From Mytilus trossulus (taxonomy: Eukaryota): a DNA stretch of 64,000 nucleotides. Below are positions 9,286-49,415 of this stretch, one piece after another (position 1 is the first letter of the stretch; every line of letters begins with the position of its first letter). A program made the translations under genes and the position numbers. The stretch lies in assembly GCF_036588685.1 (NCBI RefSeq), contig NC_086381.1, positions 24,180,001 to 24,244,000 on the forward strand, in the 5' to 3' direction. Below the pieces are notes generated by a model. The model was not told the DNA's origin. It saw only the letters and a list, made by a program, of their open reading frames with translations, and made no database searches.

Positions 9286-10120
9286 TGTAACGTGTAACCA
9301 GGCGTTTATATCCAAAACGTCCGTTCCAGTCAATACTTGGATCCAAGTTGTCCACAAAAAATACGGTAATGCTAAAAACTACAACTATCTAAATTATGCA
9401 CATTGAACTAAAATATACACACTGACTCTTTGTCGAAATAAAGTAACAACAGACAAATATATATACAAATATAATTCAATAAACCAGCCTGTCCTCAAGA
9501 TGGGACGATGTGTCACTTATAGACAGTATAGCTGGTACAGCTTGTCCTCCGAATGGGACAGTCTGTCAATACAAAACAGAGAGGTCTGATACAACTTGTC
9601 CTCCGAGTGGGACAACCTGTCACTATCAGACAGTGCGGTCTGGAACAACTTGTCCTCCGTGTGGGACAACCTGTCACTACCAGACAGTACGGGCTGGTAC
9701 AGCTTGTCCTCCGAGTGGGACAGTCTGCTATGTCGATCCTGTCAACGTGTACGTCCACTCTGTACCCAGTACGAAGTGTCCTCTGAATATCAAGGCTCTT
9801 CTAGCACTTAATATATATCCGACGTACGCTCAGTTGATGGATGACAGCTCATCGACAGCCAACCGACAGCCTCGAGTGTCGTTTCTCATTCTCTTATATA
9901 CCAGTGGTCGATACCACTATTTCCCTGATAGGGGTGTTCTCTATATGTTCCCGATACCGAACACAAGAGTACCTCTCAAACACCCCCCATACCGATGGAC
10001 CCAACCACTGACTCTCCCGCCAAACGTCCAAATCTACACAACGCTTCCTTATACATGAAATAAGCATATCTTCAACAAGATTATCTATGTTTGTTACCTT
10101 AACAACCAATAAACATTACA
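9286..10120 (-). repeat. 3' LTR (835 bp)
   Basis: tgtaacgtgtaacc...aataaacattaca. Differs from the other LTR by 3 substitutions and 2 small indels that I could see. Preceded on the - strand by the purine-rich GAGGCGTGGGTTA (10121-10133, putative PPT). Confidence 0.95.
9488..9730. repeat. Five ~54-bp tandem units inside the LTR, each with a TGTCC...GGACA hairpin (second copy at ~12750-12992)
   Basis: cttgtcctccgagtgggaca recurs with 53-54-bp period (9488, 9541, 9595, 9649, 9703). Confidence 0.9.
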
Positions 10121-10210
10121 TAACCCACGCCTCAATCTACATGCGTCCCGCATGATTAATTTAAAATTACAAAATTTAATTCAACAAAATTTATACAGAT
10201 AATCCGAAAT

Positions 10211-11533
10211 TTACTTATTTACATTATCAGCAATACAAGTTGGTTTCTTACTATCGTGACGACCATTATCCTCTAATCTCCACGAGACACGTTTCCTTTT
10301 CATTGGGCGTTTTCTCCTAGTACACTGATTGCAACCAGCAACATACATCCTAACGTCAGATTGCAAACCAGGCCAATAGAAAGACTGACGTATTTTTTCT
10401 ATAGTTTTATGTATACCTAGGTGACTTGCACACTTTGTCTCATGACAGCATTGTAAAACTTGCTTACGCTCCGACATAGGAATTACCGCTTGTAATTTCA
10501 CAATATTCCGTTCCCCGTCAACGTGGCGTCTAACTACTACGTCATCATGGACCTCTAAACAACCAAACTGACTCCATAATGACCTTATAGAGTATCCTTT
10601 ACCTGATACCTCATTGTACTGTGGCCTTTGACCCTCTGTCAACCACCGCTTAACAAGTTTAAGGTCCGAGTCATTTGACTGTAACTCATTTAAAGTCAAG
10701 TTTTTACCCATGTCTGGCATCTGACTTGTAACTAGGTTTACCTGACTTTGTTCTCTCTTAGAACAGTCACGGTCCGTTTTTGACTGTGTGTCTGATGTTA
10801 ACCGGCAAGATTTTTTACGAACATCAATATTCCTAATTTTGGTACCTTGAACACATAGGGGGACCTTGACGTTATCGATGTGTAATACGTTAGCAGACAC
10901 GTCAATCAAACACTTATTTTTCTTCATAAAGTCTAAACCTAGAATTCCTTCGACTTGTAGGTTAGTTACAACAGCCTCTGAAGTAAGCTTCTCTTGACCA
11001 AAATCAAGTGTAAAATTACCTTTTCCCCGAGGGCTTAAATACTTGTCACTGACGGACTTTATCTGTGACCTAGTTTTACTCAAATGCGGCCTACATAAGT
11101 CAGGAATTGAATCATATACTCTTGTAGAAACTAAAGTAAGTGTAGCTCCAGTATCAACCACAAATTTGACTGGTACACCTTGAATGCTCAGCTCAACAAA
11201 CATTCCTGCATTCTCTGATGCTGTAACAACAACAGCGCCTTTGTCATTATACTTAACCTCAGACTTCAGTGTCTTGACCGTACCGTCCGTATATGTTCCG
11301 TTATTATCTGTTTCCCGAGTACTAAGTATCTGAATATTATTGGGACAATTTCTTGCAAAGTGTCCTATTTCTTCACAACTAAAACAAGGACCACCCATGT
11401 TACCTTTACTTTGTAAGTTATTTATCTTTCTCCGTGGTTGGAACTTTCTTTGGGACTTTAAATCTTTAATCTCTTTTGTTAAGGATTGTATACTATTTTC
11501 AATTGTCTGCATCCACGTCGTCATTTGTTCCAT
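10211..11533 (-). CDS. Gag zinc knuckle + aspartic protease + integrase N-terminal HHCC zinc-binding domain; no RT, RNase H or integrase core
   Basis: CFSCEEIGHFARNC (CCHC); FVVDTGATLTL...GILGLDFM (retropepsin); H..SHLGIHKTIEKIRQSFYWPG..DVRMYVAGCNQC (integrase H2C2), then stop. Same frame as 11591-12340. Confidence 0.9.
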   Translation of the reverse strand: MEQMTTWMQTIENSIQSLTKEIKDLKSQRKFQPRRKINNLQSKGNMGGPCFSCEEIGHFARNCPNNIQILSTRETDNNGTYTDGTVKTLKSEVKYNDKGAVVVTASENAGMFVELSIQGVPVKFVVDTGATLTLVSTRVYDSIPDLCRPHLSKTRSQIKSVSDKYLSPRGKGNFTLDFGQEKLTSEAVVTNLQVEGILGLDFMKKNKCLIDVSANVLHIDNVKVPLCVQGTKIRNIDVRKKSCRLTSDTQSKTDRDCSKREQSQVNLVTSQMPDMGKNLTLNELQSNDSDLKLVKRWLTEGQRPQYNEVSGKGYSIRSLWSQFGCLEVHDDVVVRRHVDGERNIVKLQAVIPMSERKQVLQCCHETKCASHLGIHKTIEKIRQSFYWPGLQSDVRMYVAGCNQCTRRKRPMKRKRVSWRLEDNGRHDSKKPTCIADNVNK

Positions 11534-11590
11534 AGATACAGCCGTATCAGGACTAGTAGGTGCTTCTGTCCGTTCGTCACTAGTAGTCCG

Positions 11591-12340
11591 TCATAAGTGA
11601 CCTATACTTTCTATTGCTCTACTCTCAGCTTTGTTATATGCTTCAAGTTCAACTGCCAACCGTATAGCATCGTTAAGACCTTTTGGACGAGACTGTTTAA
11701 TTCTCAATCTCATTTCAGAGTCTACTAACGCATCTATAAATTGTTCTTTGGCGAGCGTGTCTCTTAATTCTAACGGAGCAGTCGGGTATGCCAGATTAGA
11801 AAGTCTTCGAACTGACTGACCTAACCCCGGCAAAGTGTCACTTGCTTTTTGTCGATATTCCTTGAATTGTACACGATACAGTTCAGTTTGACAAGATGGA
11901 GCAAAGCGTTCCTCCAATGCATATACTAGGTCTGAAAATATTTGTCTCTTTTCCTTTGGTAAATCACCAAGGACTGCTTGAGCCTTTCCAACCAGTGACA
12001 CGGCCAAGTACAAACCTTTCTGGTATTCAGACCACATATTAACAAGTGTACACATCTCAAAGTGTGCTAAGTAATCTATCCAAGGAGTATTGCCATCATA
12101 TTTTGAAGGTTTGATTTTCAAATCATTCGAACCAGAGCAAACAGTATGAGCAGTACTTTGATTTTTCGTTAATTCCTGCTTATGATTGAAATATCTATCT
12201 TTATCTTTAACAACCATTGGACGTACACCCTGCTCTTTAGGTGTAGATGATATAAAACCTTGTCCATGTTGTATTGTGCTTTCACTAAGAGACTGTATTT
12301 GTCTACTTATTTCTGCAATCTGATCGTCAATATTTGACAT
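11591..12340 (-). CDS. Gypsy Gag (capsid region)
   Basis: KPSKYDGNTPWIDYLAHFE...LAVSLVGKAQAVL...LEERF...RQKASDTL...LAYP...AKEQFIDAL; ends at one in-frame TGA 57 nt before the next ORF. Confidence 0.9.
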   Translation of the reverse strand: MSNIDDQIAEISRQIQSLSESTIQHGQGFISSTPKEQGVRPMVVKDKDRYFNHKQELTKNQSTAHTVCSGSNDLKIKPSKYDGNTPWIDYLAHFEMCTLVNMWSEYQKGLYLAVSLVGKAQAVLGDLPKEKRQIFSDLVYALEERFAPSCQTELYRVQFKEYRQKASDTLPGLGQSVRRLSNLAYPTAPLELRDTLAKEQFIDALVDSEMRLRIKQSRPKGLNDAIRLAVELEAYNKAESRAIESIGHL

Positions 12341-12521
12341 ATTTATTACAGTACAGTGTAATCAAAATAATACAATTTTTATTAAATTATACACTCGTGT
12401 TACAACTCAGCCGTGACTAATAACTATGCCTCACGGTTGATCCGCTTTAATCTTTCAAATCAATACTGAAAACACATTAAATGACGACCAATCAATCCAA
12501 AAATTAATTGATAGACAACTT

Positions 12522-12543
12522 GAATCCCAACCGCTAGCCACCA
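12522..12543 (-). promoter_or_regulatory. Primer-binding site, tRNA-Leu-like
   Basis: TGGTGGCTAGCGGTTGGGATTC 4 nt inside the 5' LTR; matches the complement of a tRNA-Leu 3' end (TGGTGGCAGCGGTGGGATTC) with two single-base insertions. Confidence 0.75.
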
Positions 12544-12547
12544 AATA

Positions 12548-14257
12548 TGTAACGTGTAACCAGGCGTTTATATCCAAAACGTCCGTTCCAGTCAATACTT
12601 GGATCCAAGTTGTCCACAAAAAATACGGTAATGCTAAAAACTACAACTATCTAAATTATGCACATTGAACTAAAATATACACACTGACTCTTTGTCGAAA
12701 TAAAGTAACAACAGACAAATATATATACAAATATAATTCAATAAACCAGCCTGTCCTCAAGATGGAACGATGTGTCACTTATAGACAGTATAGCTGGTAC
12801 AGCTTGTCCTCCGAATGGGACAGTCTGTCAATACAAAACAGAGAGGTCTGATACAACTTGTCCTCCGAGTGGGACAACCTGTCACTATCAGACAGTGCGG
12901 TCTGGAACAACTTGTCCTCCGTGTGGGACAACCTGTCACTACCAGACAGTACGGGCTGGTACAGCCTGTCCTCCGAGTGGGACAGTCTGCTATGTCGATC
13001 CTGTCAACGTGTACGTCCACTCTGTACCCAGTACGAAGTGTCCTCTGAATATCAAGGCTCTTCTAGCACTTAAGTATGGCTCCACCTAAGAATCATGCAG
13101 AGGGTGATACAGTGATAGTTGTCAAAATGACTTTTTTGGGCTTCATATGTTCTATTTTGATGAGAAATTAAAAAAAATAACAATAACACATGTGTTGGAC
13201 ATGTGGTTGCTATGGTTACGATGGCACCATAACAACCCTTTAATTTCAGTCCTAAAACCACAAAATTTTCTGTTTTTCATCACAGATTTTTTTATAAACT
13301 GCTAATTAATTTGGCTAAAACAAATATGTGTTATCATAGTTTCACATTTGTTCTAAAAATTAAAGTTGATAAACCGAAGTTGCAACTATGGCAACTCTTG
13401 TTTCCATGGCAACCAATCGTTGCAGTTTTTCATTTTCTCAAAAGGAATGAAAATTATGTTTTTCAAATTCTATTTTCTTCCAAGAGCAGGGTCCTATTGA
13501 TAATCTGTTTGTTTGCATTTGTTCATTTGACCTTTGTCTATAACATATCAAAAATAATCATTTGTAGCCTCCTTTAGATTTTTCAGAAAAAAAAGTTTTT
13601 TTTGTCTCATTTTTTTTTTTTTGCATTTTTTTTTTTTTGCATTTTTTTTTTTACAATATGCTAAATTATTTTCATGTATTTATAGCACAATTCATTTGAT
13701 TGTGTCTTTTTTGCATGTATAACACCTAAATATTGAAACAAAGTAAAGAAACCAGTTACTTATTTATCATTTTCCTCAAATCAAGCTACCAGTTGCCATG
13801 GAAACAGAACACAGCGATTTTGAGAATTACACATTTTTGATAAATGTTTGCTTTAACATGATAAAATTTTTCTCCACGTTATACATTGTAACATCAAATT
13901 ATTCAAAATAATGAAATAAAGTTGAGAAGGAAATTTGGTCGTCATGGAAAATAAAATATATATCCGACGTACGCTCAGTTGATGGATGACAGCTCATCGA
14001 CAGTCAACCGACAGCCTCGTTTCTCATTCTCTTATATACCAGTGGTCGATACCACTATTTCCCTGATAGGGGTGTTCTCTATATGTTCCCGATACCGAAC
14101 ACAAGAGTACCTCTCAAACACCCCCATACCGATGGACCCAACCACTGACTCTCCCGCCAAACGTCCAAATCTACACAACGCTTCCTTATACATGAAATAA
14201 GCATATCTTCAACAAGATTATCTATGTTTGTTACCTTAACAACCAATAAACATTACA
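12548..14257 (-). repeat. 5' LTR, interrupted by an ~880-bp insertion
   Basis: 12548-13073 and 13957-14257 match the other LTR. Confidence 0.95.
13074..13956. mobile_element. Insertion at a TTAA site in the 5' LTR; probable truncated DNA-transposon derivative rich in GTTNCCATGGNAAC motifs
   Basis: Absent from the 3' LTR (ctagcacttaa|tatatatccg). Left junction follows TTAA; the right end lacks a matching TIR and TTAA. Confidence 0.75.
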
Positions 14258-15942: not shown

Positions 15943-16552
15943 TTTATACTGGATATAGTGCGAAAAAAATCATTAAATTCTGTTTAAAAGAATTATCCTT
16001 GTAGTTCGGGATTTTTGTTATTTCAATTTGTATATATTGATTATTGTTAAAAATAACGTCCTTTGACAACAATATAACTCCAATAATTAGTATTTGAAAA
16101 TAAGCATCTTCGTGCATCTTTAAAGGGATAATGGATTTTTCACCAGGAATGGTATTTTGTTTGTGCATTATTACTGCATATTCGTTAAGAAACATGTGAA
16201 ATAATGCAGGAAGGAACATAAATCTTATCAATTTCTTCAAAACTTTCTTTTCAAGTAATTCAGAATGACGCACCTATAAAAAGTTCGTGTCTGTATTTAT
16301 ATTCTCTGATTGTAACATAAGGCACACTGCCTTTTCCTTTATAGTGTAGCAAACTTATGGCTATTTTGCTATCCGAAGCAACGTCATCATTCTGTTTGTT
16401 TGTTTGTTTACCAACTTTGAAGGTTGGGTATGATCTGGTTTACAACCAATAATTCCCCTGCTCATGAACTGTGCCCGCTATATTTACTTCCAAGCTGCCA
16501 ACGTTTCGTTACGAGAAAGAACTTAATACCCTACATGATAAGAAACGTTAGG

Positions 16553-16662
16553 TATATATATAAGAGTCACACGGTCTTATAATTCATGTCGTAATGTGCC
16601 GATCTTTTAATGATCTAGTGATTAAACGCATTAGTCCACGCTAAAAGGAAAATATACATAAG
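16553..16662 (+). promoter_or_regulatory. Possible TATA box and non-coding first exon of the DDC-like gene
   Basis: tatatataag at ~16553 and donor-like aag|gtaggc at 16662; the first coding exon has an acceptor (tttttgtcag|) at 18614, implying an upstream exon. Location is a guess. Confidence 0.3.
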
Positions 16663-18639
16663 GTAGGCTCTTCATATCTAAATAAACAAAAACACAAACA
16701 CAAATTTATACATAATTTTGGATTTTAACAATTACAGTCCAAAATTACAAAACGTGTGTTTCAATGTAGAGAATTACATACGAGTAACGACAAAACTAAA
16801 GGCGTTTTAATTGTGAACTGACAAAACAAAGAAAGCCTTATTTCGACCATCTGTATTCGAAAATCATGTTTAATTATTTGTCATAATTTTATATATTAAC
16901 CTGGGATGATTTCTTTTCCTTTTATATTAATATGTAACAAATCTGAAATTAAAATTAAGCACAAATTTTCAAAAAAAGAATCAATAATAAATTTTTATTT
17001 ATGAGTTACTTGGAGCTATCTGATATATTTTTGTTGTGTGGACATTTAGCATCCATGAATTTCAACAGGTTATACAAGTAGTAACTCTTATTTACTTATG
17101 ATTTGTGATAGAAGAAGACATTACATTTATATCTTATTTGTATACTTATATTTATAAATTAAAAAATAAAGTTATCATTGCATATTATACGAAGTTTGCA
17201 ATATGGCGAATCCCAATGCAGCAAGGAGGTCATATTACCTCATTGAATACAGTAAATAAATATATATCTTTATTTATATGTAAACATAAAATGTTAGTGA
17301 TTGAATAGGTTTCTAGGTCCCAAGTGTCATACCAACGGTTAAATCACATTGTGTGTATTTTTCCCCAGATTGATAAAAACCTGTCACGAACTCATAAAAA
17401 ACGATTTTGTTATTAATGCTTGTTTCATACGCAAAACTCAAAAATAATAAAATTCACACACTAGCTTTTCGTCCGATGATCTAGGTCGATTGGCATCATA
17501 TATCCACAAACAATCTTTATAAACATAAGAATCAATCATTCCAAATAATTTAAGAATATATTCTTATCAAACAAAGAATCTAAAGATATATGTATTATGT
17601 TATCATGGTTATATTAGAAAACAAAACAGTACTAATCTAAACTGTGAAGATAAATGGTTCGTAACACTGAACAAACATTTTGACTGGAAAAACGTGCATA
17701 ACACTTTATTGGTTCCAGTATAGAATAATACACAGGTATTGGGCACAAATAAATCTTCATTTAGAATAAAAATAAGAAAGCAACAGATGTACTTTCTGAA
17801 ATGAAGATCCTGACGATATTGATCAAATATTTTGGACCTGTTATGAAATAGCAGATCTGTGGACAATGGTGGATAAAACTCGGTTACTGGTTTTATAATC
17901 AAATATAAATAATTATTCCGTTTACATTGATATATTTTTATTTGGAAATTTAGGAAAAGCACAAAATGATAAAATAAAATGTTTAATAACATTATTATTA
18001 AAACTGTATGATATAGAACAAAACTGTATGATATTATCAAATAAATTTTGCAGGGCTCAAAATCATCTCAAAGAAAATCTTATATTAGAAAAGAATACAT
18101 TTTCTAAATCAAAGCTTCTTCACATTTCCAACCCCTGCTTGTTTAGTTCTTGTGTTCTGTCTATAACCACATGTACGCTTTTAATATCGGTTTTGTGTTT
18201 ATAAGAGTTTTTAACAATGGAAAACCAACTGTGCTAAATTTATCTAATGTTTATTTCAAAAGAAACATGCTTGTTTTGACCAAAAGACTGCTGCCAAAAA
18301 TCTTCTTTTCTTTTCTTTTTTTTTATGTTTTTGTTTTGTTTTACATTCATTTATCATTCTGTCTTCTGTCTTTTCTTTCCGTCTGAAATAAAATATTCTC
18401 TTTATTAAACAATTTGGAAATAATGGATACATTAAAATTTCATATATATTATATCATTTAGAAAACTAACAATTACTTACTTATTCTATCTAAATATACA
18501 AAAAAATAAAATCACAAAATACTGAACTCTGTGGAAACTAATCTTATGTTTAACGAGACCGGGGGAAAGGTACCGATACTTTCTGTATCTAACTAACAAA
18601 TTTCTTTTTGTCAGGAGTAGCTTACGACAGACAGACACC

Positions 18640-21600
18640 ATGGACGCCAAAGAGTTTAGAAAACGTGGACGAGAAATGGTAGATTACATCGCGGATTACC
18701 TCGAAAATATACGAGAACGTGACGTGGTTCACACCGTTTCTCCTGGATACCTTAAAGATCTCTTACCAGAAGAAGCACCTAAAGATCCAGAAAATTTTGA
18801 TGAAGTTTTCAAAGATATTGAACGAGTGATAATGCCCGGTGTATGTATTTCGTAGAAAGCTGCTCTTCTAACATTTGTTTTATAGCACATACAAGATACA
18901 TCTTTTATAGTTTAAAGAGAGATGTAACCTTTATTTGTTTCTCATCATTACGATGAATGTAGAAAGTGTATTTGTGTTTGTGTTTGTCTATTAATTTGCT
19001 CTATCCTAAATTAATGCGTTAGTTCGTAGACGTGTTGATTATCAAAGTGAGTTTAAGACATTGGTTAGTTACTGTTTCAAATTCCAGTGTTCCTGTTTTG
19101 AATTAACAATTAAATTTAGAAAAAATGATATCTTCTTTTATTTATTTTTCATTGAACAGTACTATAGAAGAAAGTTATTGAAATACATTATAATATAAGC
19201 CACTTACGATACATTCTATAAGAGAAGTCTAAGAAACGGCATACATGCTCATGTACTTGTGTTTCATCCGCTAAATTTATATTGCTGTAGTATGAAAGTT
19301 GGCATTCGATAATTATAATTGACAACTTTTGCAGGTAACGCATTGGCATAGTCCATATTTCCACGGATATTTTGCTCCTGGGAGTTCCTATCCATCCATT
19401 CTTGGTGACATGTTATCCGATGCTATTGGTTGTATTGGATTTTCTTGGGTAAGTTCTATATATCTTTAACATTTGTATGATTCATCTTAAATTTCTGGCA
19501 CATTCTTCTCTTCACTAAAACCAACCATATTTAGTTGCAATTCGTAGAGATAAAAAGATAATCGATGTGATCAAATTTAAAGAATGGACTGGTGCTCGGA
19601 ATATGGGAATAATCGAAGAAAAAACGATCCTATTTCGGAACATGCCACTGGCTTATTTTTAATCAAGACCGAAAACACATTGGCTTAAATGACTATAAAA
19701 ATAAATAGCATACGGTACCGCTTTATTCTATATCAAGATCTGAAAAAAGATGCTCATCTAACACCTATTTTTAAAATCTGACAAGACGGTAGTCATAAGG
19801 TAATCGTAGTATCTATGATGAGTTTATGTAGAACAAATGTGTGGCTCACATCTAACAGCAAGCTATTTAAGGTTTTCAAAATGACTAGTGTACAACAATT
19901 CAAACAGGGAAACCAATGGTCTATTTTTTTATAAAACGAGTGATGAGAAACACCTAAGAACCACACCAACAAACGGCTAACACTGAACAACAAAATATAA
20001 TCAGAAGTCCATCCTTTTTTTTTTTAGTTTATAATTTTTTTTTTCTTGTCTTTTAAAAATAAATGTTGAAAAAAATGTTATTTTGAAAACTATAAACATG
20101 TTTGCCTTTACAGGTGACAAGTCCTGCTTGTACAGAACTGGAAGTCGTCACCACAGACTGGCTCGGCAAAATGATAGGTCTGCCTGAAGAATTTCTACAC
20201 TGTACTGAAGGACCAGGGGGCGGAGTCATACAGGTCAGAACCATATTGAAGTTTTCTTGGCATTTATCTCTGATTGATTTTACCTTTCCTGCCTTAATAT
20301 TAACTTTTCTAGAAAATTATGAACCAATTATTATGAATATTCATATGCAGTTTAAGACACTTTTAATCTATTATTAAAAGAAAAAACATACAAAGGTAAA
20401 CAAAAGATACAATTACAGACACATGTACAAAATAATACAATGATTCTTAAGCAAAACCTATATTCATTTATTTATCAACTTTTCTTTATTTTTCGGGGTT
20501 TAAAGGGTTTGAGAAGTTTTTTACAGTGATCGTTTGTTTGTCAGCACTGAAATTAGCTTTTACTGAAATTGACAACACCAAAAATCAATTATCAAACTTT
20601 GTTTTTTAGTCCACAGCAAGTGAAACAGTCCTTTTATGTCTATTAGCAGCGAGAACCCGTATTGTTAATAAATACAAGAAAGAAAATCCAGAAATGAACG
20701 AAGTTGAGATCATGTCAAAACTTGTTGGTTACTGTTCTACACAGGTAAAATAATAACATTTCAAAATAAGATATAAAATAATAAACGATATTATGCAATG
20801 AATATCTGATACAACTCAAACTATCTATCAATTTGTTCTGAAATGTGAGGTTAAAAGCTAGGACAGCATTGTGATTTTGTACTTTTGCTTCTGTTTTTTT
20901 TTTGCAATCTTTACCAAAACAGTGGAAGAAAGCAACAAAGATACAAAATATTAATGTTCATAATGATAATTTCACATCTCATCAAACGGTGACTTTATAT
21001 ATATATATATATATATATTTTAGGCAAACTCGTCTGTTGAACGGTCTGGGCTGCTTGGAGCTGTACAAATGGTTAAGCTTATTCCTGACAGTAAACACAG
21101 CGTTCGAGGGGAGACGCTAAGACAAGCTATAAAACGGGATAAAGATAAAGGCAACATACCATTTTTTGTGAGTTATGTTACAAAGTTTATGAAATTTAAT
21201 GACAAGACAGAAAGTAAAACAAACGATAAAAAAGCGAATCGGTGTTAACACAAAAATAAAGGAAGAACGCAGTTATTGTTCTTTCAAAATTCACATGCTT
21301 TGATATTGTGACATTAATGCTCTATGTTTTATTCGTGCCTTTTTACAATCAGGGTTACATTTTGTAGCGAAACATTATATTGCGTCATAAATCAAGTGAT
21401 TTTTTTTTTGGGGGGGGGGGTGAAAGAAATGCTTTACGATTATGATTACTGTTGGTTGGAACCATTGTTCAGTTTCCTCTATTGTTAATTTACCCTTCCG
21501 GAGCACCTGAGATCACCCATAGTTTTTGGTGGGGTTCGTGTTGGTTATTCTTTAGTTTTCTATGTTGTGTCATGTGTACTATTGTTTTTCTGTTTGTCTT

Positions 21601-24600
21601 TTTCATTTTTAGCCATGGCGTTGTCAGTTTGTTTTAGATTTGCGAGTTTGACTGTCCCTTTGATATCTTTCGTCCCTCTTTTACATCAACATTATATCAT
21701 ATATTTATAATTTAATTCTTATCACAGATCTGCGTATCTTTGGGAACAACAGGAACATGTGCTTTTGACAACTTAGCAGAAATTGGACCTATCTGTAAGT
21801 AAGAATTTGGCATTTATTTAATTATTAATGGTGGTCCATATACTTTTGCGATATCAAATAAAATAATAAATAAAATACACCAACAAATTATGTGAGGTTT
21901 TTCAAAATTAATGATTAAACTTCCTTAAGTCATGACACAAAACTTACAAAAATGGTGGCACATTAACTATGTACTCTTGCCTAATGCACATTTCATACGG
22001 ATTTAAGGTAAATAATTTCGCTTTTTACTATTTCGGATTGATTGGTTAGACATTCACTTTAAGTTTATATGCATTACAGGCGAAGAGGAAGGTATATGGC
22101 TACATATAGACGCAGCTTATGCAGGCAGTGCCTTTGTTTGTCCAGAGTTCAGACATTACATGAAAGGAATAGAGGTAATATACGCATAGTCAATAACAGT
22201 TATGTTGCATATTATTTGGATTGTTAATACATTGTTCACGTGCATGGTGAAATGTAAGAGTCCATTTCTTCAGTCTTCAGAAGTATTAGAAGACCATCTT
22301 TAAATGAACCGAAAAACGAACTAAATTTTATTTTGAAAGAAAATATCCCGTCTGTTTAAAGATGTACGTCTTACACTCACACAGCTTTACAATTTGTCAA
22401 CGCCAAAGTTAATAAATATTAATGTCTTCTACCTTTCAGTATGCAGAGACTATTAGCATTAATCCACACAAATGGATGTTGATAAACTTCGACCTATCCG
22501 TAATGTGGTAAGTTTTACAGTGAACGAAAGTTTATTATCTATCAACGGCAAACCGATTGAGCCCATGTTGGTATCTAACCCGAAGTGAGTTCAAGGTGGC
22601 ACGGTAGTATTTCCTGGCCATAAGGGATAATGATAGCCATTTTAGAATTTTCACCACTTTCTAACACTGCAAAAAATTCTACATTCACAGTTAACTGAAG
22701 TACTTTTCTTTTACCATTCAGAAATGAATTTGGATATGTACCATGACCGTTTACTTTTTTTGCTATTTTTAAAATCCTAAGGCCACTAGTACTTTTAGGT
22801 CTTTTATGGTGCAGTGAATGCAAAATTTTAAAAAATTCTCAAAAATTCATTTTCATCTGTATATAAAATTATTTCATATTTTTCTACACCTGATTCATCA
22901 CTCAGTTTGGGAAAGTATGTTCATTTGATACTGTATTTTTTGTCCAATCACACTGTTTAGATACATTTACCTAAGTAGGGTACACAAAAGAGCAACCTAA
23001 ATTCTGGAAAGCAAATACTACCGTGCCACCTCAAGCACATACATATTAAATGTAATATGCAAAATAACAAAAGTAATTTCAAGAGGGAAAATCCGTAAAA
23101 CTGATAAAACTATAATAATCTGTGGAAACAACTGGCATATTCCTTCTTATTTCAGATCCTCAATGTCGTCCATCATCAGTGACCCCTTCGCTCCTATTTG
23201 AACCGTATAAATCATTTAAACTTATCGTGATCAGCCGGAACTATACTTATTATATTAAGTTTTTGCGTCAAATGTTTTCCTTATGCCATATCGGTTGGCA
23301 GTAAACTACACTACTACTTTAATGCGCTGTTGTGGTGGACAGTTGCATATACAACAATCGACTGTAATCTGTGGTGGTGATTTAGGATGTACAAATATCG
23401 TATCACTTAGTTTATTTCTAATTAAGATATGAAAAACAAAAACGGTTTTGTTGACATTGCTCGTGACGTCACATACCTATATGTTCTGTTTGGCTTTGCT
23501 TGGGTTTATAAAACGAGTTCTTAAACCATAGAGATAAAACTTTTAAACATCCTCCTTTATATTACTGACAATTGTGCAGAATGTACTACATGTATATCCT
23601 TTATCAACTCTTTCTCCAAAGGATAAAAGACAGCACACTATTAGTAGATGCTTTTAATGTTGATCCAGTTTACCTTAAACACGTGAACCAAGGAAAAGTG
23701 CCAGATTACAGGGTATGTAGAGTTTGGCCAAATTTTCTTATTGATTGGTTTTACAAGTTATCCTCCTTACCGTATTGAAAGTATCTGTGAAATAAGTCAA
23801 ATGTATTTATAAGAACTAAAAAAATTACATTACATAAGAATGTTATTAATGTTAATTAAAGGCAACAGTAGTATACCGCTGTTCAAAACTCTTAAATCTA
23901 TGGACAAAAAACAAAATCAGGGTAACAAACTAAAACTGAGGGAAACGCATTAAATATAAAACATTTAAAAGCCATGAATAGTTATTTCTCTTTCCGAAAG
24001 ACAATTAGCCAGTGAGTACGAGTCTAGCGCAGTAGAATTGATATCGGTAATGGGATTATTATAAACACTATAGATTACTGACAAGTTTGTTTTGTCAATT
24101 ACATTAACTTTCGAAAATCAGTATGAAGACAGAGAAAATCAAACAGAACGTTAAGGCATGCACGGAAACATTTGGTACAGAACAGGAGAAACAACCAACG
24201 GAACATTAAAGACATTCAATGAAATCTTTCGGCACAAGACAGTAGAGACAACCACAAACAAAATATTAAGACGTGTGTCGAAATCTTTCATCACAAAATA
24301 GGAGAGAGAACTAAAAAGAACATAAAGACGTGTTACCGATTCTTCCGGCACAGAACAGGGGAGAAAACCACAAACGAAACATTAAGACATGTGTCAAAAC
24401 CTTTCAAAATATAACAGGAGAGACATCCAACAAAACATTAAAGACATGTGTCAAAACCTTTCAAAATATAACAAGAGAGACAACCAACAAAACATTAAGA
24501 CATGTGTCAAAACCTTTCAAAATATAACAGGAGAGACATCCAACAAAACATTAAAGACATGTGTCAAAACCTTTCAAAATATAACAGGAGAGACAACCAA

Positions 24601-27600
24601 CAAAACATTAAGACATGTTTCAAAACCTTTCAAAATATAACAAGAGAGACATCCAACAAAACATTAAGACATGTGTCAAAACCTTTCAAAATATAACAGG
24701 AGAGACAAACAACAAAACATTAAGACATGTGTCAAAACCTTTCAAAATATAACAAGAGAGACATCCAACAAAACATTAAAGACATGTGTCAAAACCTTTC
24801 AAAATATAACAGGAGAGACAACCAACAAAACATTAAGACATGTGTCAAAACCTTTCAGAATATAACAGGAGAAACAACCAACAAAACATTAAGACATGTC
24901 TCAAAACCTTCCAGAATATAACAGGAGAAACAACCAACAAAACATTAAGACATGTCTCAAAACCTTTCAGAATATAACAGGAGAAACAACCAACAAAACA
25001 TTAAGACATGTCTCAAAACCTTTCAGAATATAACAGGAGAAACAACCAACAAAACATTAAGACATGTCTCAAAACCTTTCAAAATATAACAAGAGAGACA
25101 TCCAACAAAACATTAAGACATGTGTCAAAACCTTTCAAAATATAACAGGAGAGACATCCAACAAAACATTAAAGACATGTGTCAAAACCTTTCAAAATAT
25201 AACAGGAGAGACAACCAACAAAACATTAAGACATGTGTCAAAACCTTTCAGAATATAACAGGAGAGACAACCAACAAAACATTAAGACATGTGTCAAAAC
25301 CTTTCAGAATATAACAGGAGAAACAACCAACAAAACATTAAGACATGTCTCAAAACCTTCCAGAATATAACAGGAGAAACAACCAACAAAACATTAAGAC
25401 ATGTCTCAAAACCTTTCAGAATATAACAGGAGAAACAACCAACAAAACATTAAGACATGTCTCAAAACCTTTCAGAATATAACAGGAGAAACAACCAACA
25501 AAACATTAAGACATGTCTCAAAACCTTTCAGAATATAACAGGAGAAACAACCAACAAAACATTAAGACATGTGTCAAAACCTTTCAGAATATAACAGGAG
25601 AAACAACCAACAAAACATTAAGACATGTGTCAAAACCTTTCAGAATATAAGAGGAGAAACAACCAACAAAACATTAAGACATGTACTGAAATCTTTAGGC
25701 AAAAAACAGGAGAGACAACCAACAGAACATTAATTCAAGACAAGTGCTGAAATTTGTTGATAAAAACTACGGGAACCAAACAACCAGAACATTACAACAT
25801 GTCCCAGTATTGCATTGAAGCTTTAATTTTATCTCCATAGATGGGTATTTGTTTGAATTATTACAAATAGATTCAGTTGTCTTAAAATATGTTTTAACAA
25901 TTTAGAGATTCCATTAAGTGAACATTGCCGCTCAAAAAAGTGACAATGCTCTTTTAATTCTGATGGAGAAGTGTCTTTATAAAACCGATCTATATTTTGT
26001 TTTAGCACTGGCAGATTCCACTAGGACGCCGATTTCGATCTTTGAAATTATGGTTTATGCTTCGTTCATATGGTGTTTCAGGAGTTCAATCTTACATCAG
26101 GAAGGTACGACTGTCGTTATTGTTGTTTAATCGATTGTTAAACTAATTATGATTCACCACACCACAAAAGTACTGTGTTTTGAAAAAGATACTAGTAAAT
26201 CTTAATATTTATACTTTTTTCGAGATTTGTTTCACAAATTTTCTATATTCGTCCAAACTATAAGCCTGATATATGTGATGAGTTTTGTATGCGATATATA
26301 TTCAAAGCATATAAAAGAGCTTAATAATTTAGCAATCAACTTCTCTCAAAAACTAGAAAGAGCAAAAATATCTATTTTTGATTTGTAGAAAGAAACACAT
26401 TGTTAAAAAATACGTGTCACTCTTGTCTTATAAGGCATGTTTTTTTTTAAACTGCATTACTTAATAATTGTGATGATTAGTTTCTGGATTGTTTATTGCC
26501 TTTAAATGACTATTTTTTCAACAAACAGGCCACAGACCACAATTAAATTCTCTATTAGTTCTTTATAACGTTTTGTTTCATCAAAAAAATTGCTCCTAAT
26601 CATTTTGTCAAATTTTTTGTGTGTGTAAAGTACAGTTCTAGTCCAAAAATATATCCAACATTCAGAAAGATTGCTCCTCTGTATTTTACAAATTTAGCCA
26701 ATACACATCCATACCCCTAAGGACAAGTCAAAAGATGTTCCGAAAACTGTAAATATCACCTTTTTGCACCTGGCCTAATCACTCTTTCCATATCAAAATC
26801 AGTGAAAATGAAACATCCAAAAGTTTATTTTAGCTATCTTCTTTCATTTCCATCCGAGAAAAGCTAAGAAATGTATGAGAAAGGGAAAGAAAAAAAATAA
26901 AGAAAAAATGCACTATAATCAAAGGGAACTATATTTCGACAACGAAAAGCGGGATCATTAATTGTGGTCTTGGGCCAACAATTGTCATTCCAATGATAAC
27001 CATTTGTGATCTTGTCGACTTGTTCCCTTAATCGTATTATGCAAACTTTGTATAGGAGCTTATAAGTCAGTATGATAAGAATATAGCTTATCGTCACGTT
27101 CTGCTTCATATATTGCGTCCTCCCACTCAAAGTTTCGTTTCTATGCTGAACGCATTTATCGAACTTGAAATAAAGGATACGCCAGATACAGTAAAAACTG
27201 TCTTATTGGGAATCGGGGAGCAAAACTTTATGCTAAAAAAAAGAAGATGTCAGCTTCATCCATTGTGAACTTTCCATTTCTATATTCTAGCAGCTGCTGT
27301 AAATACATATCTCCCAAATTATACGATATTACAGAGCTGGGATGTTCTATGTATCACGATTTCCTCGATAGATGTTGGTTGTTTACATATAAGCTGTTAC
27401 AGAAATTAATCTACATCGAATTCCTTTTGATTTTGAACGATTTTCTTAATTTTGTAGCATGTTAACTTGGCAAAGCAATTTGAAAAGTTAGCAAGAGAAG
27501 ATGGACGTTTTGAGATAGTTGCAGAAGTTGTTATGGGACTTGTTTGTTTTAAATTAAAAGTAAGTAAGGATTAAATTCACGTGTTATTCCGTTAGCAACT

Positions 27601-28265
27601 TATCAACAACTTATCTAGCTTTGTATAAATTAGAGTTAAATTTGTTGTAATTCAACTACTTTTATCTTCGTAGTTACTCAACTAGTGTTTTAAAGATTTG
27701 AGCATTACTACCATAAAAACAATTTCCCCAGACTTTTAAATGATAAATATTTTTAAACTTTTTCTTGGCAGATTTAAAAAAAAAACATTTAAAAAAAAAA
27801 AACATTATTGATGTTTGAAATGTTTTCTTTAAAGTCAAATTAAGTACATAAACATAATTCATATGGTTAGATAGATAGCTGTTGTTATTTCCACGTATAA
27901 TTGATTAGTCATTATTATCAATGGCTTATATTAATATAAACATTTATTTCGTAATTAAATTTTAGGGTCCAAATGAACTTAATGAAAAACTGATGGAAGA
28001 AATCATTGAAGACAAGCGGATATTCCTCATTCCGGCATTTGACAAAAACGTGTATTTCCTCCGCTTTGCCGTATGTGCAGAACGTACAAATTCTAAAGAT
28101 GTAGACTATTCCTTTAGTGTAATCAGAGATTGTGCTAATAATGTGTTGGCTGTGCATTCAAAGACTCCATTGAAACATACCCCAGTTGTTGTTGATATTG
28201 ACCAACAGCCAAGATATAAAGGAAAGATGATAAGTCATAATCAGGACTTTGACGACGAGATTTAG
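18640..28265 (+). CDS. Aromatic L-amino acid decarboxylase family protein (group II PLP enzyme; DDC-like, with Asn192 as in DHPAA synthase/amd), 511 aa, 12 coding exons
   Basis: Exons 18640-18840, 19335-19448, 20114-20233, 20610-20744, 21024-21167, 21728-21794, 22080-22174, 22440-22507, 23622-23712, 26006-26104, 27458-27559, 27966-28265; all GT-AG, in frame, no stops. Motifs: [37 protein letters not shown] (D271), NPHKW (PLP K303), DPVYLKH (Y332), [16 protein letters not shown]. Confidence 0.95.
21490..21685 (+). repeat. Dispersed repeat (retroelement 3' end / SINE-like) in DDC intron 5
   Basis: tacccttccggagcacctgagatcacc...gccatggcgttgtcagtttgtt...gagtttgactgtccctttgatatctttcgtccctctttta; related tails at ~1045-1190, 2280-2380, 30330-30440, 44800-44870. 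Confidence 0.7.
22595..23030. mobile_element. MITE with perfect 18-bp TIRs and TCAA target duplication (DDC intron 8)
   Basis: tcaa|GGTGGCACGGTAGTATTT ... AAATACTACCGTGCCACC|tcaa. Confidence 0.9.
24146..25800. repeat. 56/57-bp minisatellite in DDC intron 9 (~23 homogeneous copies at 24378-25690 with degenerate flanking units)
   Basis: Unit aacattaagacatgtgtcaaaacctttcaaaatataacaggagagacaaccaacaa; accounts for the repetitive ORFs at 24330-25314. Confidence 0.95.
27160..27400 (+). mobile_element. Degenerate Penelope-like RT fragment (DDC intron 10)
   Basis: Frames give [20 protein letters not shown], YISxxIRYYRA and YHDFLDR, recognisable as the RT/thumb region of Penelope-like elements; frameshifted. 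Confidence 0.55.
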
Positions 28266-38299: not shown

Positions 38300-41200
38300 T
38301 CAATGGCCCTTTCGTTTGTTTGACGGTAGAGCTTTCAAAAGTTCATTTCTTTTGGTATGTAACGCATAGCACAGTTTTCTATTTATATACTCCACTTTGA
38401 AGCAGTTGTCCATGCATTTGCATCTACAGCCACATGCGCATAATAATCTACTTGGGTCTAAAATAAGCTGTTTATTTATTACTAAGCTGGTTAGGTTAAA
38501 GCATTTATCACAGTTTTTAATGCTACGAAGAAAGCAGTCTAATTCATACAAGTATGGTATACGAATATTATTCAGAGGTTTACAATCTAGAATAAAATGT
38601 TCAACAGTTTCTGAATTTTCGTTGCAGAGAAGACAAGTTGGATCTATTGAATTCTGGTTAAATGCAGCCTTATTGCTTTGCAGGTAATAAGTTCCTGTTA
38701 ATAGCTTTAATTTTGGTTGTAGGCGGCTAATATCTTGTGCAGAGGTACCAACACTTGCCAGACATGGATGAATATTGTACCATAGAATATTATTTGCAGA
38801 TAAATTGCGAAGAGAGCTGAATAATGATACTTTTGTCCTGAGTTGTTCATACCAAACGTTGTCCACTGCCTTCTTAACAATTGCTTTCCATCTGTATCTA
38901 CTGACCGGGTTCTGTATAAGTTCATGAGCTGATTGTAGGTTATATTGTGCAAGTAAGCAACGTATTTTAGAGAACCAGTTTTTGGAGTTAAATCCGGATA
39001 TCGAGAGTTGTCTTTCTGCCAGATCTTTTTCAACGGATGATTCCATACCACAAATCTTGTTGTATATGTTTAAGGCTGCTTTGTGTATAATGCCTTGGAG
39101 TGGTATAACTCCTGCTATAGTATAAATTGCTGCATCCGCCGTGTTGTTGGGAAGCGACAAGATCTGTTTAATTGATTTTCGATAGAATACTTCTAGTGGC
39201 TCTAATTGTTTATTGTCTGGAAGAAGAATGTCAATTCCATAGATAAGAACAGGAAGAACATAAACGTTGAAAATGTGAAGACATGTTATTGGATTTAGCC
39301 CATTCTTTCCATGCAGACCAGCCCCCATCAGGCTATACATAGTTCGTCTTGCCTTTGAGATGTTTTCATCAACATGGATGCTGGTAGTTTTTTTTAAATC
39401 AGAGCTGTGTTTTATGCCAATATGCACAGCTGAATCTGGCTCATTCATTTCTATGTTATTAATTTTGAAGCTGAAGCCTGTATCTTTTGAAGGTGGTTCA
39501 TGTTTTAATACAACACTTTTTGTTGGTTGGAGTGAGTATTTCTCTTGCAAGCTGTAATTCTCAACCGTACTTATCATTGTTTGGAGGTCATTAGGAGAAT
39601 TGGCAATGAGAGCAACATCATCTGCGCAAGTTGGGGATCCACAGTATATATTTCCGATGTAGGTGCCAAGGCCACTGTTTTCTAATTGGTCCAATACATC
39701 ATTGATGTAAACTTTGTACAGTTCGGTGCTTAATATGCCGCCTTGTCTTACTCCTTGTTGTACAGGAAATGGTTTTGACATTAGACCGTTCCATTTTATA
39801 GAGGTTGTGGCGTATGTACTCAGTTGGCGGATAAGTAGCCAGAGGGTCCCACCGACTCCTGATAGAAAGAGTTTACGGTGTAAGCTGTTAAGATTGACAA
39901 CATCAAATGCAGATTTGGCGTCTAGCAGAGCTACAAAAACAGGAATCTTTTGGTCCATTGATTCTGCTATGGATTCTAGGAGTATGAGTGCGCTATATAA
40001 AGGCGATACCCCAGGAGTGAAACCTCTTTGTAATCGGTTTTGGAGAATATCGATGATGTCTCTTAGCAGTTTCCTCAGTAGTATTTCAAGGATTTTCCCG
40101 ATAATTGGGAGTACAGTGATTCCTCTATAATTTTTTGCCTCATTTGGTAGTCCTTTGTTTTTGAATATTGGTGTTAAGATTCCATGTTTTATGCAGTCTG
40201 GTATGGTTGCAGAGGAGCAGATGTTGTTGATTATAGATGTTATTGCCTGCAGTAATGTATCTCCACCATATTTGACATGTTCTGCTGTAATACCGTATAT
40301 ATCAGGTGCCTTGTTGGTGTTCAGTTGGTTTATGGCTTTGTCAATTTCTTCAGCTGTGAAAGTTAATGGTACAGCATTTTGTTTGCAGATTTCTTCAATA
40401 ATGTCTATATCAAATTCTTTGTTGGCATGATCCGAGTTCGTGGTATTAGACTCAGGTGTTGCGAGCTTGCTGAAATGCTCGTTCCAACCTTGAAGTATTT
40501 CTTCCCGAGAAGAATAGGTTTTGTCTTCTACAGTCAGGTCTGATATGGAAGATTTTTTGGTTTTCCTTTGTGCATTTACAAGTCTATGGAATATTTTGCT
40601 ATCTCTTTGCTTAGCGTTCATGATCTTCTGTAGCGATTCATCTCGTTGCCGCGCAATTTCTTGTCTCCGTGCTTTGCGCAGTTGCTTTTTAGTTTTTTTC
40701 CTTTCTTGCATAGTTTCGCCAGATGTTGGTTTTCCTTCTAATTTCCATTTATCAAGTGATGATTTATTCATTTTCAGTGATTGTTCAATTTCATCATTCC
40801 AGATATGTCTGTTTCGTTGGGTTGATATTTTAGATGGTGGTACTATATTTTTTTGAGCTGTAACTATGGTTTCCATAAGTCTTGTTATTGCAGTTGAATC
40901 ATTCAAGTAGTCAATGGGATTTTCTTGAAGGCATTTTGTTAAACTATCTTGGTATTGTTGTAAATCTATCTTATCCCATTTGATTTTATTTGACACTACT
41001 GGTTGGTCTTGTTTTTTCTTGCTAATAATCTCGGTTTCAATTTCCGTTAAAAGAGGATAGTGGTCAGAGGTGTTGTTTGACAACATATCCAGTCTAATGG
41101 TGTTGTAAACTTTATCGGCTAGACTGTCGTGTACAAAGATATAGTCAATTGTTGATGTTTCATTGCCATTTGGATGAATGAATGTTAATGGGGTTGCTTT

Positions 41201-41800
41201 AAACAATAGCTTCTTAGAACTTATGAAGTCTTCGAGTTCCTTTAACCGTGCTGATTTAATAGATGTTTTCATCAGATCACAGTTCCAGTCTCCACATAGG
41301 ACAGGTGTACATGTGTCGGAGTATTTGAGAATTATCTCGTGGAGCTGGTCAAGACATTCTTTGAACTGTTCGTTTGCCTGTTTTGACCCTCTACATGGCA
41401 TATAAGCACAGATTAATAGAATTGGCTTTGGTTTTACATTTATCTTTATACATATAATTCTCTCTGAGCCATCATTAATTTTTTCTACAAGATGATCGAG
41501 ATGCTGTTTCCAAAGTATAGCTACTCCACCATATCCTCTAGGTTTTTGAGTTGGAGGTATAGGGTTGTTTTCGTCAACTGACTTGCATGTCCAAGATGTT
41601 TTGTTAAAGAGTTCTCCTATATTGTCCTGTTCAAACTTGAATAGCCAATGTTCCTGAATACATATAAAATCGGTAAAATCTAAAATGTCTTTTATACAAG
41701 ATTGGGAGTTATATACATTTTTACAATTGAAGGAGGATATTCTTAGTAAAGTTGAAGTAGAGGCATCCTGTGCTATGTGATTATCTGGATGTTCTGGCAA
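38300..41800 (-). CDS. LINE ORF2: AP endonuclease + reverse transcriptase + C-terminal CCHC, 1166 aa, intact
   Basis: SFNC..IQEHWL..GGVAILW..GDWN..IDYIF..SDHYP (APE); KAPDIYGI, PIFKNKG..NYRGIT, QRGF, LDAKSAFDVV, GVRQGGILS, TCADD (RT); CLLC..ETVEHFILDC. Confidence 0.97.
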   Translation of the reverse strand: MPEHPDNHIAQDASTSTLLRISSFNCKNVYNSQSCIKDILDFTDFICIQEHWLFKFEQDNIGELFNKTSWTCKSVDENNPIPPTQKPRGYGGVAILWKQHLDHLVEKINDGSERIICIKINVKPKPILLICAYMPCRGSKQANEQFKECLDQLHEIILKYSDTCTPVLCGDWNCDLMKTSIKSARLKELEDFISSKKLLFKATPLTFIHPNGNETSTIDYIFVHDSLADKVYNTIRLDMLSNNTSDHYPLLTEIETEIISKKKQDQPVVSNKIKWDKIDLQQYQDSLTKCLQENPIDYLNDSTAITRLMETIVTAQKNIVPPSKISTQRNRHIWNDEIEQSLKMNKSSLDKWKLEGKPTSGETMQERKKTKKQLRKARRQEIARQRDESLQKIMNAKQRDSKIFHRLVNAQRKTKKSSISDLTVEDKTYSSREEILQGWNEHFSKLATPESNTTNSDHANKEFDIDIIEEICKQNAVPLTFTAEEIDKAINQLNTNKAPDIYGITAEHVKYGGDTLLQAITSIINNICSSATIPDCIKHGILTPIFKNKGLPNEAKNYRGITVLPIIGKILEILLRKLLRDIIDILQNRLQRGFTPGVSPLYSALILLESIAESMDQKIPVFVALLDAKSAFDVVNLNSLHRKLFLSGVGGTLWLLIRQLSTYATTSIKWNGLMSKPFPVQQGVRQGGILSTELYKVYINDVLDQLENSGLGTYIGNIYCGSPTCADDVALIANSPNDLQTMISTVENYSLQEKYSLQPTKSVVLKHEPPSKDTGFSFKINNIEMNEPDSAVHIGIKHSSDLKKTTSIHVDENISKARRTMYSLMGAGLHGKNGLNPITCLHIFNVYVLPVLIYGIDILLPDNKQLEPLEVFYRKSIKQILSLPNNTADAAIYTIAGVIPLQGIIHKAALNIYNKICGMESSVEKDLAERQLSISGFNSKNWFSKIRCLLAQYNLQSAHELIQNPVSRYRWKAIVKKAVDNVWYEQLRTKVSLFSSLRNLSANNILWYNIHPCLASVGTSAQDISRLQPKLKLLTGTYYLQSNKAAFNQNSIDPTCLLCNENSETVEHFILDCKPLNNIRIPYLYELDCFLRSIKNCDKCFNLTSLVINKQLILDPSRLLCACGCRCKCMDNCFKVEYINRKLCYALHTKRNELLKALPSNKRKGH

Positions 41801-42570
41801 AGTTCTAAAAAAGAGTCCGGCTGATTTGTTGGATAATCCTCAGTATTTGAGCTGGGTCCAATAGCTTCCTGTGATATTTGATTTCTTTGAACACATGGAA
41901 CTTCTTTGTCAGGTATAGATTGTTCCTTGTTTAACATACTGCTGACGTCCTCAGGTTCTGTTGTGAGTTCTTGTTGTGACCTTTTGATTTCACTTACTGT
42001 GTTAAGAAGTTCAGATGTATCTGTAGAATTTAACATGGTTGGTGTTGTTGCCATGTTTGAGATTGCATTTTCTGTCGGAGGTGTAGTTGTGACAGATTTG
42101 TGAGGCTGATTGACCAAATTGGTTGCTTGAGGCCCTGTTGTGGAATTAATAACAGTATTCACGGTTTGGTTGTTTTTGTTGTCATGCCTGAAGTGCAGGT
42201 TTGCTCCTGTAAATGTTTGCTGGGCTGGTTGACGGTTATGTTGGTTGTTTACCGTTGTTTGATGATGGAAATAAGATGGAGGCGGAATATTTGAAGGATG
42301 TGGAGGTAATCCATGCGAAGGAAATATTGGTCTTTGCATGTTTGGAAGGTAAGCTGGCGTGTGTTGTGGTTGACCTGGCCAGTTGGTGCTCATTGGTCTG
42401 TACTGCTGGGGATATGTAGGTAATCTAGCCATGTAGGCAGGGCCCTGTGGAATTGGGTACTGCATTTGGAAGTGGCTTGTATGATATGGCTGATAGTGTG
42501 GCCTAGCTGATTGTGATAATGTCAGTTCTAGAGTTCTGAGCCTCTGTTGGATGGACTGCAGTTCCAGTGC
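41773..42570 (-). CDS. LINE ORF1, C-terminal part (coiled-coil end + P/Q/T-rich low-complexity tail), 5'-truncated
   Basis: The frame stays open upstream of the track's Met (ALELQSIQQRLRTLELTLSQ...); overlaps the ORF2 start by 28 nt. Confidence 0.75.
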   Translation of the reverse strand, partial: ALELQSIQQRLRTLELTLSQSARPHYQPYHTSHFQMQYPIPQGPAYMARLPTYPQQYRPMSTNWPGQPQHTPAYLPNMQRPIFPSHGLPPHPSNIPPPSYFHHQTTVNNQHNRQPAQQTFTGANLHFRHDNKNNQTVNTVINSTTGPQATNLVNQPHKSVTTTPPTENAISNMATTPTMLNSTDTSELLNTVSEIKRSQQELTTEPEDVSSMLNKEQSIPDKEVPCVQRNQISQEAIGPSSNTEDYPTNQPDSFLELCQNIQIIT

Positions 42571-43019
42571 ATCATATAATCAGAACGTTTTCCCATTTTT
42601 TTTCATAAATGTAAATTGTTATTTGGGATAAATGGCATTCATTCAGAATATAACTGCAATATAAATAAGCATATTTGTTTACCTTTTGGTTTGTCTGCTG
42701 AAGAATTCTTTTTAGTAAAGTCAGAGACATATATACACATGTGTATATATGTCTCTGGTAAAGTTAAGATAAGCAACGATTTTACCTATTACCAGTTTTT
42801 TCTTCTCAAATTTTATAACTACAACGTACCCATTTGTTGGTACGTTATAGAACGTTTCGGCCTCAGTCTTTTCGGCCATACTTCGTTTATACGTTTTGGT
42901 CATGTTTTTTATTGCTATATAGAGGGGAAGGTATTTTTTTTTCGAATCAGAAATAATAATTAAAAAAACAGTTAATAAACATCAACAAAAATATACCAAC
43001 TAAAGTAATTGGAAAAAAA

Positions 43020-49340: not shown

Positions 49341-49415
49341 ACCCATTGACACTTTCGCAGGTGGGGATATTTGTAGATTTTTATCAAAAGTTTGTAAAGT
49401 TTCACTTGTTCTAAA

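Follow-up and report, generated by a model that had tools for sequence, protein, structure and literature searches.

An Asn192 paralog of DOPA decarboxylase in bivalves and gastropods, a candidate aromatic aldehyde synthase

Known aldehyde synthases and the mussel gene

Animal aldehyde synthase chemistry has so far been described from insects only, where 3,4-dihydroxyphenylacetaldehyde (DHPAA) synthases (DHPAAS) and other aromatic aldehyde synthases (AAS) occur alongside DOPA decarboxylase (DDC). All studied insect AAS carry Asn, and all aromatic amino acid decarboxylases (AAAD) His (PMC10380194). Here we analyzed 64,000 nucleotides of the Mytilus trossulus genome (assembly GCF_036588685.1, contig NC_086381.1, positions 24,180,001 to 24,244,000; hereafter the window, in whose positions all coordinates are given). 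We propose that the decarboxylase-like gene at 18640-28265 (+), a conserved mollusc DDC paralog in which His192 has been replaced by Asn, would act as an aromatic aldehyde synthase of separate origin from the insect one, a proposal to which we give an even chance. The gene is intact, spliced and long conserved, and stands alongside a normal His192 DDC.

Enzyme studies in insects and plants frame this comparison. For Bombyx mori DHPAAS, the aldehyde share of the products is 95% in the wild type, 67% in the double mutant F79Y-Y80F, 22% in N192H and 6% in the triple mutant, which makes Asn192 its main switch (PMC6494836). The dopamine peak of Aedes DHPAAS is 'very minor' (PMC3026038) and the natural Eucalyptus enzyme EgPAAS, which has undergone the His-to-Asn exchange, is exclusively an aldehyde synthase (10.1101/404970). 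Natural Asn192 enzymes with assays are thus near-pure aldehyde synthases. In Drosophila DHPAAS both Asn192 and Tyr332 are required and V328 gates O2, and N192L, Y332F and V328L each lower aldehyde output with specificity unshifted (PMC13651850). Asn192 does not fix the substrate, since sawfly PonAAS2 acts on Trp (PMC10380194). Within fly DDC, T82A is active with a Km raised 2-8 fold, and His302 has been proposed to recognise DOPA (PMC2809104).

The 12-exon mussel gene, with GT-AG introns, encodes 511 amino acids, identical at 511/511 positions to the M. trossulus 'AADC-like' protein XP_063401108.1 (AADC, aromatic L-amino acid decarboxylase). The protein matches PF00282 (Pyridoxal_deC) over its full length with 520 bits and has the pyridoxal 5'-phosphate (PLP) lysine K303 and D271; an NCBIfam profile search returned solely bacterial models, all below threshold. 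The best Foldseek match of the AlphaFold monomer is human AADC (8ORA), which confirms the AADC-type fold. All 11 coding introns are backed by spliced contigs from one sequencing run, classed as RNA by an automatic guess: eight appear as listed joints, one through contiguous record coordinates and two through loose ends matching the next exon. The contig piece over 21027-21167 has no alternative letter, and the Asn codon AAC is present in spliced form. Exon depth was below 0.5 in the raw reads of one RNA run (19% read), whose tissue is not given. A sequencing error, a pseudogene or a private variant is ruled out by the identity to XP_063401108.1, the spliced contigs and Asn192 in 16 of the 17 clade members introduced below. 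A first-pass annotation of this DNA had placed the enzyme at 19335-26104, which does fall inside one plus-strand gene but covers exons 2-10 only. The features of the locus are as follows.

16552..16564, +, putative TATA-like box, some 30 bases upstream of where the transcript is inferred to begin (sequence alone)
16583..16662, +, non-coding first exon, 5' end approximate (before 18613 the spliced contig has a loose end of 78 letters that aligns here, then GT)
18640..18840, +, coding exon 1, aa 1-67; the exon itself starts at 18615 (gene model and, as for all exons below, spliced contig)
19335..19448, +, coding exon 2, aa 68-105, with W71, G78, Y79, F80, A81, P82, I101 and F103 (model, alignment)
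20114..20233, +, coding exon 3, aa 106-145 (model)
20610..20744, +, coding exon 4, aa 146-190 (model)
21024..21167, +, coding exon 5, aa 191-238, with the Asn192 codon AAC at 21027-21029, His in DDC (model, alignment)
21728..21794, +, coding exon 6, aa 239-260, with G247 (model)
22080..22174, +, coding exon 7, aa 261-292, with D271 (model)
22440..22507, +, coding exon 8, aa 293-314, with H302, PLP lysine K303 and L311 (model)
23622..23712, +, coding exon 9, aa 315-345, with V328, P330 and Y332 of the catalytic loop (model)
26006..26104, +, coding exon 10, aa 346-378, with L351 and G352 (model)
27458..27559, +, coding exon 11, aa 379-412 (model)
27966..28265, +, coding exon 12, aa 413-511 and stop; 3' untranslated region to at least 28500 (model)
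24181..25733, no strand, 56-bp tandem repeat inside intron 9, 27.5 copies, 91% match, with no sign of function (repeat scan)

Residue numbering is gap-free against pig and human DDC up to residue 338, and G352 corresponds to their G354; fly DDC was also aligned. The motif HGYFAPGSS lies in frame at 19362-19388 (Y79 19368-70, F80 19371-73), with further codons for N192 (AAC, 21027-29), L311 (22494-96), Y332 (23671-73) and G352 (26024-26); D271, H302 and K303 are kept as in DDC. The substitutions noticed at first pass, Y79-F80 with P81A and T82P relative to mammalian DDC and C311L (NFDL) where DDC has Cys, are all found in frame in the aligned model. Two exclusions made at the same time also hold: the plant Tyr-to-Phe route to aldehyde synthases does not apply, with Tyr332 kept throughout the clade, and the gene is neither HDC nor TDC, which have Ser354 and NPSKW/NPNKW against G352 and NPHKW here and are other loci in other clades.

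The bivalve-gastropod Asn192 clade and its origin

Four AADC-subfamily genes were found in the mussel genome by a PF00282 search and tblastn: the Asn192 gene (C9), a His192 DDC (C2), an HDC-type gene (C5) and a TDC-type gene (C12). The C2 locus (P0036) is orthologous to mollusc DDC; the Asn192 gene, whose Asn192 exon is single-copy in the genome, sits in a separate clade with a support of 99-100. The Asn192 protein and the mussel's own DDC are about 59% identical, and their intron positions are the same where compared.

The best 120 of 7,997 scored candidates contain 16 clusters of 60-95% identity that group with the query, one of them (P0021) assigned by motifs alone and outside the trees. 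They comprise mussels, oysters, scallops, ark shell, pearl oyster, venerid clams, zebra mussel, abalone, periwinkle, Batillaria and some unnamed records. Chitons, cephalopods, heterobranchs, annelids and brachiopods contribute no member to these 120, which is not proof of absence. Including the query, Tyr332 is present in 17/17 members, and positions 79-80 read YF in 12 and YY in five, the latter including Meretrix and Ruditapes. Against a canonical comparison set of 97 His192 DDCs (His192 in 97/97 by definition of the set), 25 columns including 192 are diagnostic of the clade, among them several at the pocket (G78, A81, S198, G247, T296, S298 and L311). Thr82 is lost in 16/16 members, and the mussel protein keeps H302 and G352; V328 occurs in 16/16 and also in 69/97 canonical DDCs. 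Searches limited to open-access literature found no description of this clade.

The mussel protein can be compared with several known systems. With animal DDC/AADC (EC 4.1.1.28; PDB 3K40, 1JS3, 8ORA) the mussel protein shares K303, D271, H302, Y332, Y79-F80 and G352, but it differs by Asn192, the 24 further diagnostic columns and the loss of Thr82. With insect DHPAAS/AAS it shares the group II PLP fold, Asn192, Tyr332, V328, G352/354 and the coexistence with a His192 DDC, and G247 and mostly I331 are common to the clade and the insect enzymes. It differs from them in P330 instead of R330, R197 instead of K197, A81-P/A82 instead of P81-T82, in L311 and in its separate branch, and molluscs have no cuticle. 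Myrtaceae EgPAAS and the engineered poppy enzyme PsTyDC H205N likewise have His changed to Asn in the small loop and retain the large-loop Tyr, but they belong to the plant TyDC clade, use Phe or Tyr and have an independent origin.

Trees were built from 29-65 hand-chosen rows out of about 440 collected proteins, with quick searches. In all best trees the mollusc clade receives an SH-aLRT of 99-100, and in every one of them the insect Asn192 enzymes group with insect DDC (SH-aLRT 96-98), apart from the mollusc clade; a derivation of insect aldehyde synthases from insect DDC is likewise stated in a preprint on plant AAADs. Descent from the insect amd duplication finds no support in any of these best trees, where the mollusc clade stands apart. 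Trees constrained to unite the two Asn groups lose 19-34 log-likelihood units. Under LG+C20, a joint Asn origin is rejected with column 192 alone removed (p-AU 0.025) and with seven columns removed (p-AU 0.0097), the seven having been picked after they were seen to be shared with insects, which favours rejection. Placement of the clade root as sister to all DDCs, to mollusc DDC or to lophotrochozoan DDC is in no case rejected. An independent rise of Asn192 in molluscs is therefore favoured by these trees, not proven.

The first-pass annotation had read Y79-F80 next to Asn192 as a hybrid active site yielding both dopamine and DHPAA, the two precursors of tetrahydropapaveroline (THP). As a mark of bifunctionality the pair is non-diagnostic. 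Among 109 insect-type Asn192 proteins, gathered with a termite query and insect wherever named, positions 79-80 read YY in 65, FY in 20, YF in 18, YC in three and FF in three; YF is found in 84/97 His192 DDCs, and natural Y79-F80 DHPAAS sequences occur in ants and moths (PMC6494836). Judged by the alignments, Y79-F80 is an inherited ancestral state that varies within the mollusc clade, and the real mollusc distinctions are DDC-type P330 and a remodelled 78-83 loop. That annotation was right on Asn192 and on its engineered precedent, which matches B. mori F79Y-Y80F (PMC6494836), and overstated the hybrid site and THP; the firmer news is the clade itself.

Several members and relatives deserve mention in their own right. 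Batillaria attramentaria KAK7479113.1 (P0062) lies inside the gastropod Asn192 clade with His192 and Ala352, likely a natural reversion as judged from its placement. Littorina saxatilis has several near-identical Asn192 copies (P0026, P0420, P0028) differing at 80-82 and 352 (Ser/Gly), a pattern suggesting that the gene duplicated recently and that the copies diverged in substrate. Among insects, thrips proteins (P0197, P0212, P0216, P0231) come closest to the mollusc residue set, with Asn192, Y79-F80 and Ala or Pro for Arg330. Distant AADC-family proteins of Steinernema hermaphroditum (P0344) and Trichoplax adhaerens (P0272) have Asn aligned at 192 and are possible further independent His-to-Asn cases. 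Scallop CfDDC (560 aa) is the sole mollusc enzyme with a published assay that we found (about 1.65 ng dopamine per mg per hour; PMC3076384). Compared by its glycine-rich motif and primer-encoded ends alone, it matches no collected protein, including the scallop Asn192 members and scallop His192 DDC; it seems to lie outside the clade, on which it gives no evidence, and may be another paralog.

Products, cellular context and competing explanations

In the mechanism we propose, PLP on K303 would bind an aromatic amino acid, from which CO2 would then leave. L-DOPA would be the likeliest substrate because H302 and G352 are DDC-type, and 5-HTP (5-hydroxytryptophan) or others would be possible because Thr82 is lost; given the clade-wide loss of this catechol-contacting residue, L-DOPA as substrate is an assumption. 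Without His192 helping Tyr332 to protonate the quinonoid, O2 would add instead, giving an arylacetaldehyde, H2O2 and ammonia. A minor amine leak would accompany them, for which P330 leaves room. On the mutant and natural precedents we lean slightly towards mainly aldehyde chemistry.

The sole expression clue found comes from the Pacific oyster, whose ortholog XP_034301388.1 (LOC105339411) has Asn192 and is placed in the clade. LOC105339411 has the highest score among the markers of gastrula cluster 15 and occurs in 92.5% of its cells (PMC12551290, supplement sheet S2). The co-markers of the cluster include nephrin, OATP4A1, SMCT1, a taurine transporter, apolipophorin, A1CF, ACSL5, FMO2, NCEH1 and alkaline phosphatase. 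We presume a gut or kidney character for these from their vertebrate roles, by which cluster 15 would weakly point to gut- or kidney-type absorptive cells. In such cells the enzyme might convert aromatic amino acids to aldehydes and further to acids, avoiding neuroactive amines, a weaker step that draws on one oyster single-cell table. Aldehyde chemistry and a metabolic or excretory role holding jointly is a tentative proposition, well below even. Nothing was found that links the gene to ganglia, foot or THP, and a term search of a 2026 bivalve dopamine review yielded no passage on aldehyde synthesis or paralogs.

A number of observations weigh against an aldehyde synthase of independent origin in such cells. 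We found no published assay of an enzyme from the clade, and the AlphaFold monomer, whose pLDDT is <50 in most loops of the active site, is uninformative about the pocket. The insect Arg330 is absent, with P330 in 16/16 clade members and R330 in 105/109 insect-type proteins, and E196, the partner of Arg330 in insect enzymes, occurs in 4/16 members; in Drosophila DHPAAS, the exchange R330P reduces kcat about 5.6-fold, from 5.58 to 1.00 per minute, with specificity unchanged (PMC13651850). Two other natural plant His-to-Asn proteins had little or no activity in yeast (10.1101/404970). With all columns included, LG+G4 does not reject a single origin of Asn192 (p-AU 0.15 and 0.078). Finally, the oyster authors label cluster 15 as neural (Neu5) from six3/6, SERT, dachshund and LOC105339411 itself as 'DOPA decarboxylase' (PMC12551290), and a second oyster atlas found neither a protonephridial cluster nor one of differentiated gut in the trochophore (PMC10396302).

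The best-surviving alternative, which we consider improbable but worth keeping in view, is that the enzyme is still mainly a decarboxylase: the duplicate would have taken over one DDC expression domain, visceral or early serotonergic, with Asn192 tolerated in the remodelled pocket. The protein scores 649 bits against fly DDC and 569 against fly DHPAAS, is closest overall to DDC structures and is DDC-type at Y79-F80, P330, Y332, H302 and G352; fly DDC H192W still decarboxylates at a lower rate (PMC2809104), SERT is expressed in cluster 15, and the Batillaria member is back to His192. On the other hand, all assayed His-to-Asn enzymes in the papers compared make aldehyde, drift poorly explains why Asn has been kept since the bivalve-gastropod split, and TH, TPH and synaptotagmin are not among the listed markers of cluster 15.

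Somewhat less probable still is an aldehyde synthase that cross-links secreted protein as in insects, here in tanning of periostracum, hinge ligament or byssus. The wealth of catechol chemistry in molluscs speaks for such a role. DHPAA hardens insect cuticle (PMC13651850, PMC3026038) and, among the best 120 candidates, the clade is found only in shelled molluscs. As weak negatives, cluster 15 is not one of the four shell-field clusters of the oyster (PMC12551290), the supplement of a mussel byssogenesis study contains no AADC (its single 'decarboxylase' row is cysteine sulfinic acid decarboxylase) and a second byssus paper does not mention AADC in its main text, adult tissues not being resolved.

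The precedents for mixed output come from engineering. B. mori F79Y-Y80F makes 82 versus 41 nmol/min/mg of aldehyde and dopamine, two-thirds to one-third, and gave the top in-vivo THP titre in E. coli (PMC6494836), and PsTyDC H205N is bifunctional (10.1101/404970). The B. mori double mutant shares Y79-F80 and Asn192 with the mussel protein but was engineered from an insect scaffold that has an R330-type loop, and its ratio need not carry over. These precedents make mixed products possible, and a mixed ratio in vitro, taken alone, is conceivable though rather unlikely. A further step would be a balanced bifunctional enzyme whose dopamine and DHPAA condense to THP in the animal and feed benzylisoquinoline alkaloids; the retained DDC-type P330 and a review by the claimant group citing morphine and isoquinolines in Mytilus ganglia (PMC5478244) are in its favour. 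The mussel genome already has a His192 DDC, so that a bifunctional enzyme is not needed for dopamine. DDC together with monoamine oxidase could also yield THP without the Asn192 gene. With 79-80 unconserved in the clade and YF common in insect-type Asn192 proteins, assayed natural Asn enzymes near-pure aldehyde synthases, in-vivo THP titres of about 1 uM, the top in-vitro THP producers carrying His192 (PMC6494836) and no evidence found of expression in ganglia, we regard this scenario as very improbable: the sole precedent for a single-enzyme THP source would be an engineered mutant, and a morphine-type alkaloid role is unsupported.

Our preferred reading, an aldehyde synthase that evolved in bivalves and gastropods independently of insects and myrtles but by the same His-to-Asn switch, and that has wrongly been called 'DOPA decarboxylase' and has served as a neural marker, could equally well hold or fail. 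If true, it would be a second animal origin, in farmed shellfish, and a clear case of catalytic convergence. A published study treats aldehyde synthase chemistry as an innovation of insects linked to terrestrial life and the enzyme as a target for selective insecticides, with a tree of arthropods, safety tests on Daphnia and zebrafish, and molluscs unmentioned in the main text (PMC13651850). Molluscs would then be needed in off-target tests of aldehyde synthase inhibitors, and annotations and cell-type labels that use the gene as a dopamine or serotonin marker would need correction. The gene also gives a direct way into the decades-old, disputed isoquinoline claim in mussel tissue, and the clade provides natural controls in the Batillaria His192 member, the Littorina duplicates and the YF versus YY members.

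Other features of the window and genome

The neighbours of the gene in the window, retroelement remains and a PDZ-domain gene, give no hint of a pathway cluster. The latter (49398-54920, +), downstream of the decarboxylase paralog, has three exons with a PDZ domain in each; we take it to be an NHERF/PDZK1-like epithelial scaffold. A LINE-type element occupies 38300-41839 (-) and 41773-42579 (-), with a 1179-aa endonuclease and reverse transcriptase frame and a low-complexity frame upstream. A broken LTR-retrotransposon-like piece lies at 9389-14200, with a zinc knuckle, an aspartyl protease and an integrase zinc domain at 10211-12361 (-), and is flanked by a long direct repeat containing a 54-bp array (9532-9722 and 12794-12984). 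Elsewhere in the genome, further PF00282 loci on the GAD/CSAD-like side are found at C2:66.83 Mb, C2:75.40-75.45 Mb, C10:39.82-39.83 Mb (a tandem pair) and C11:41.02 Mb.

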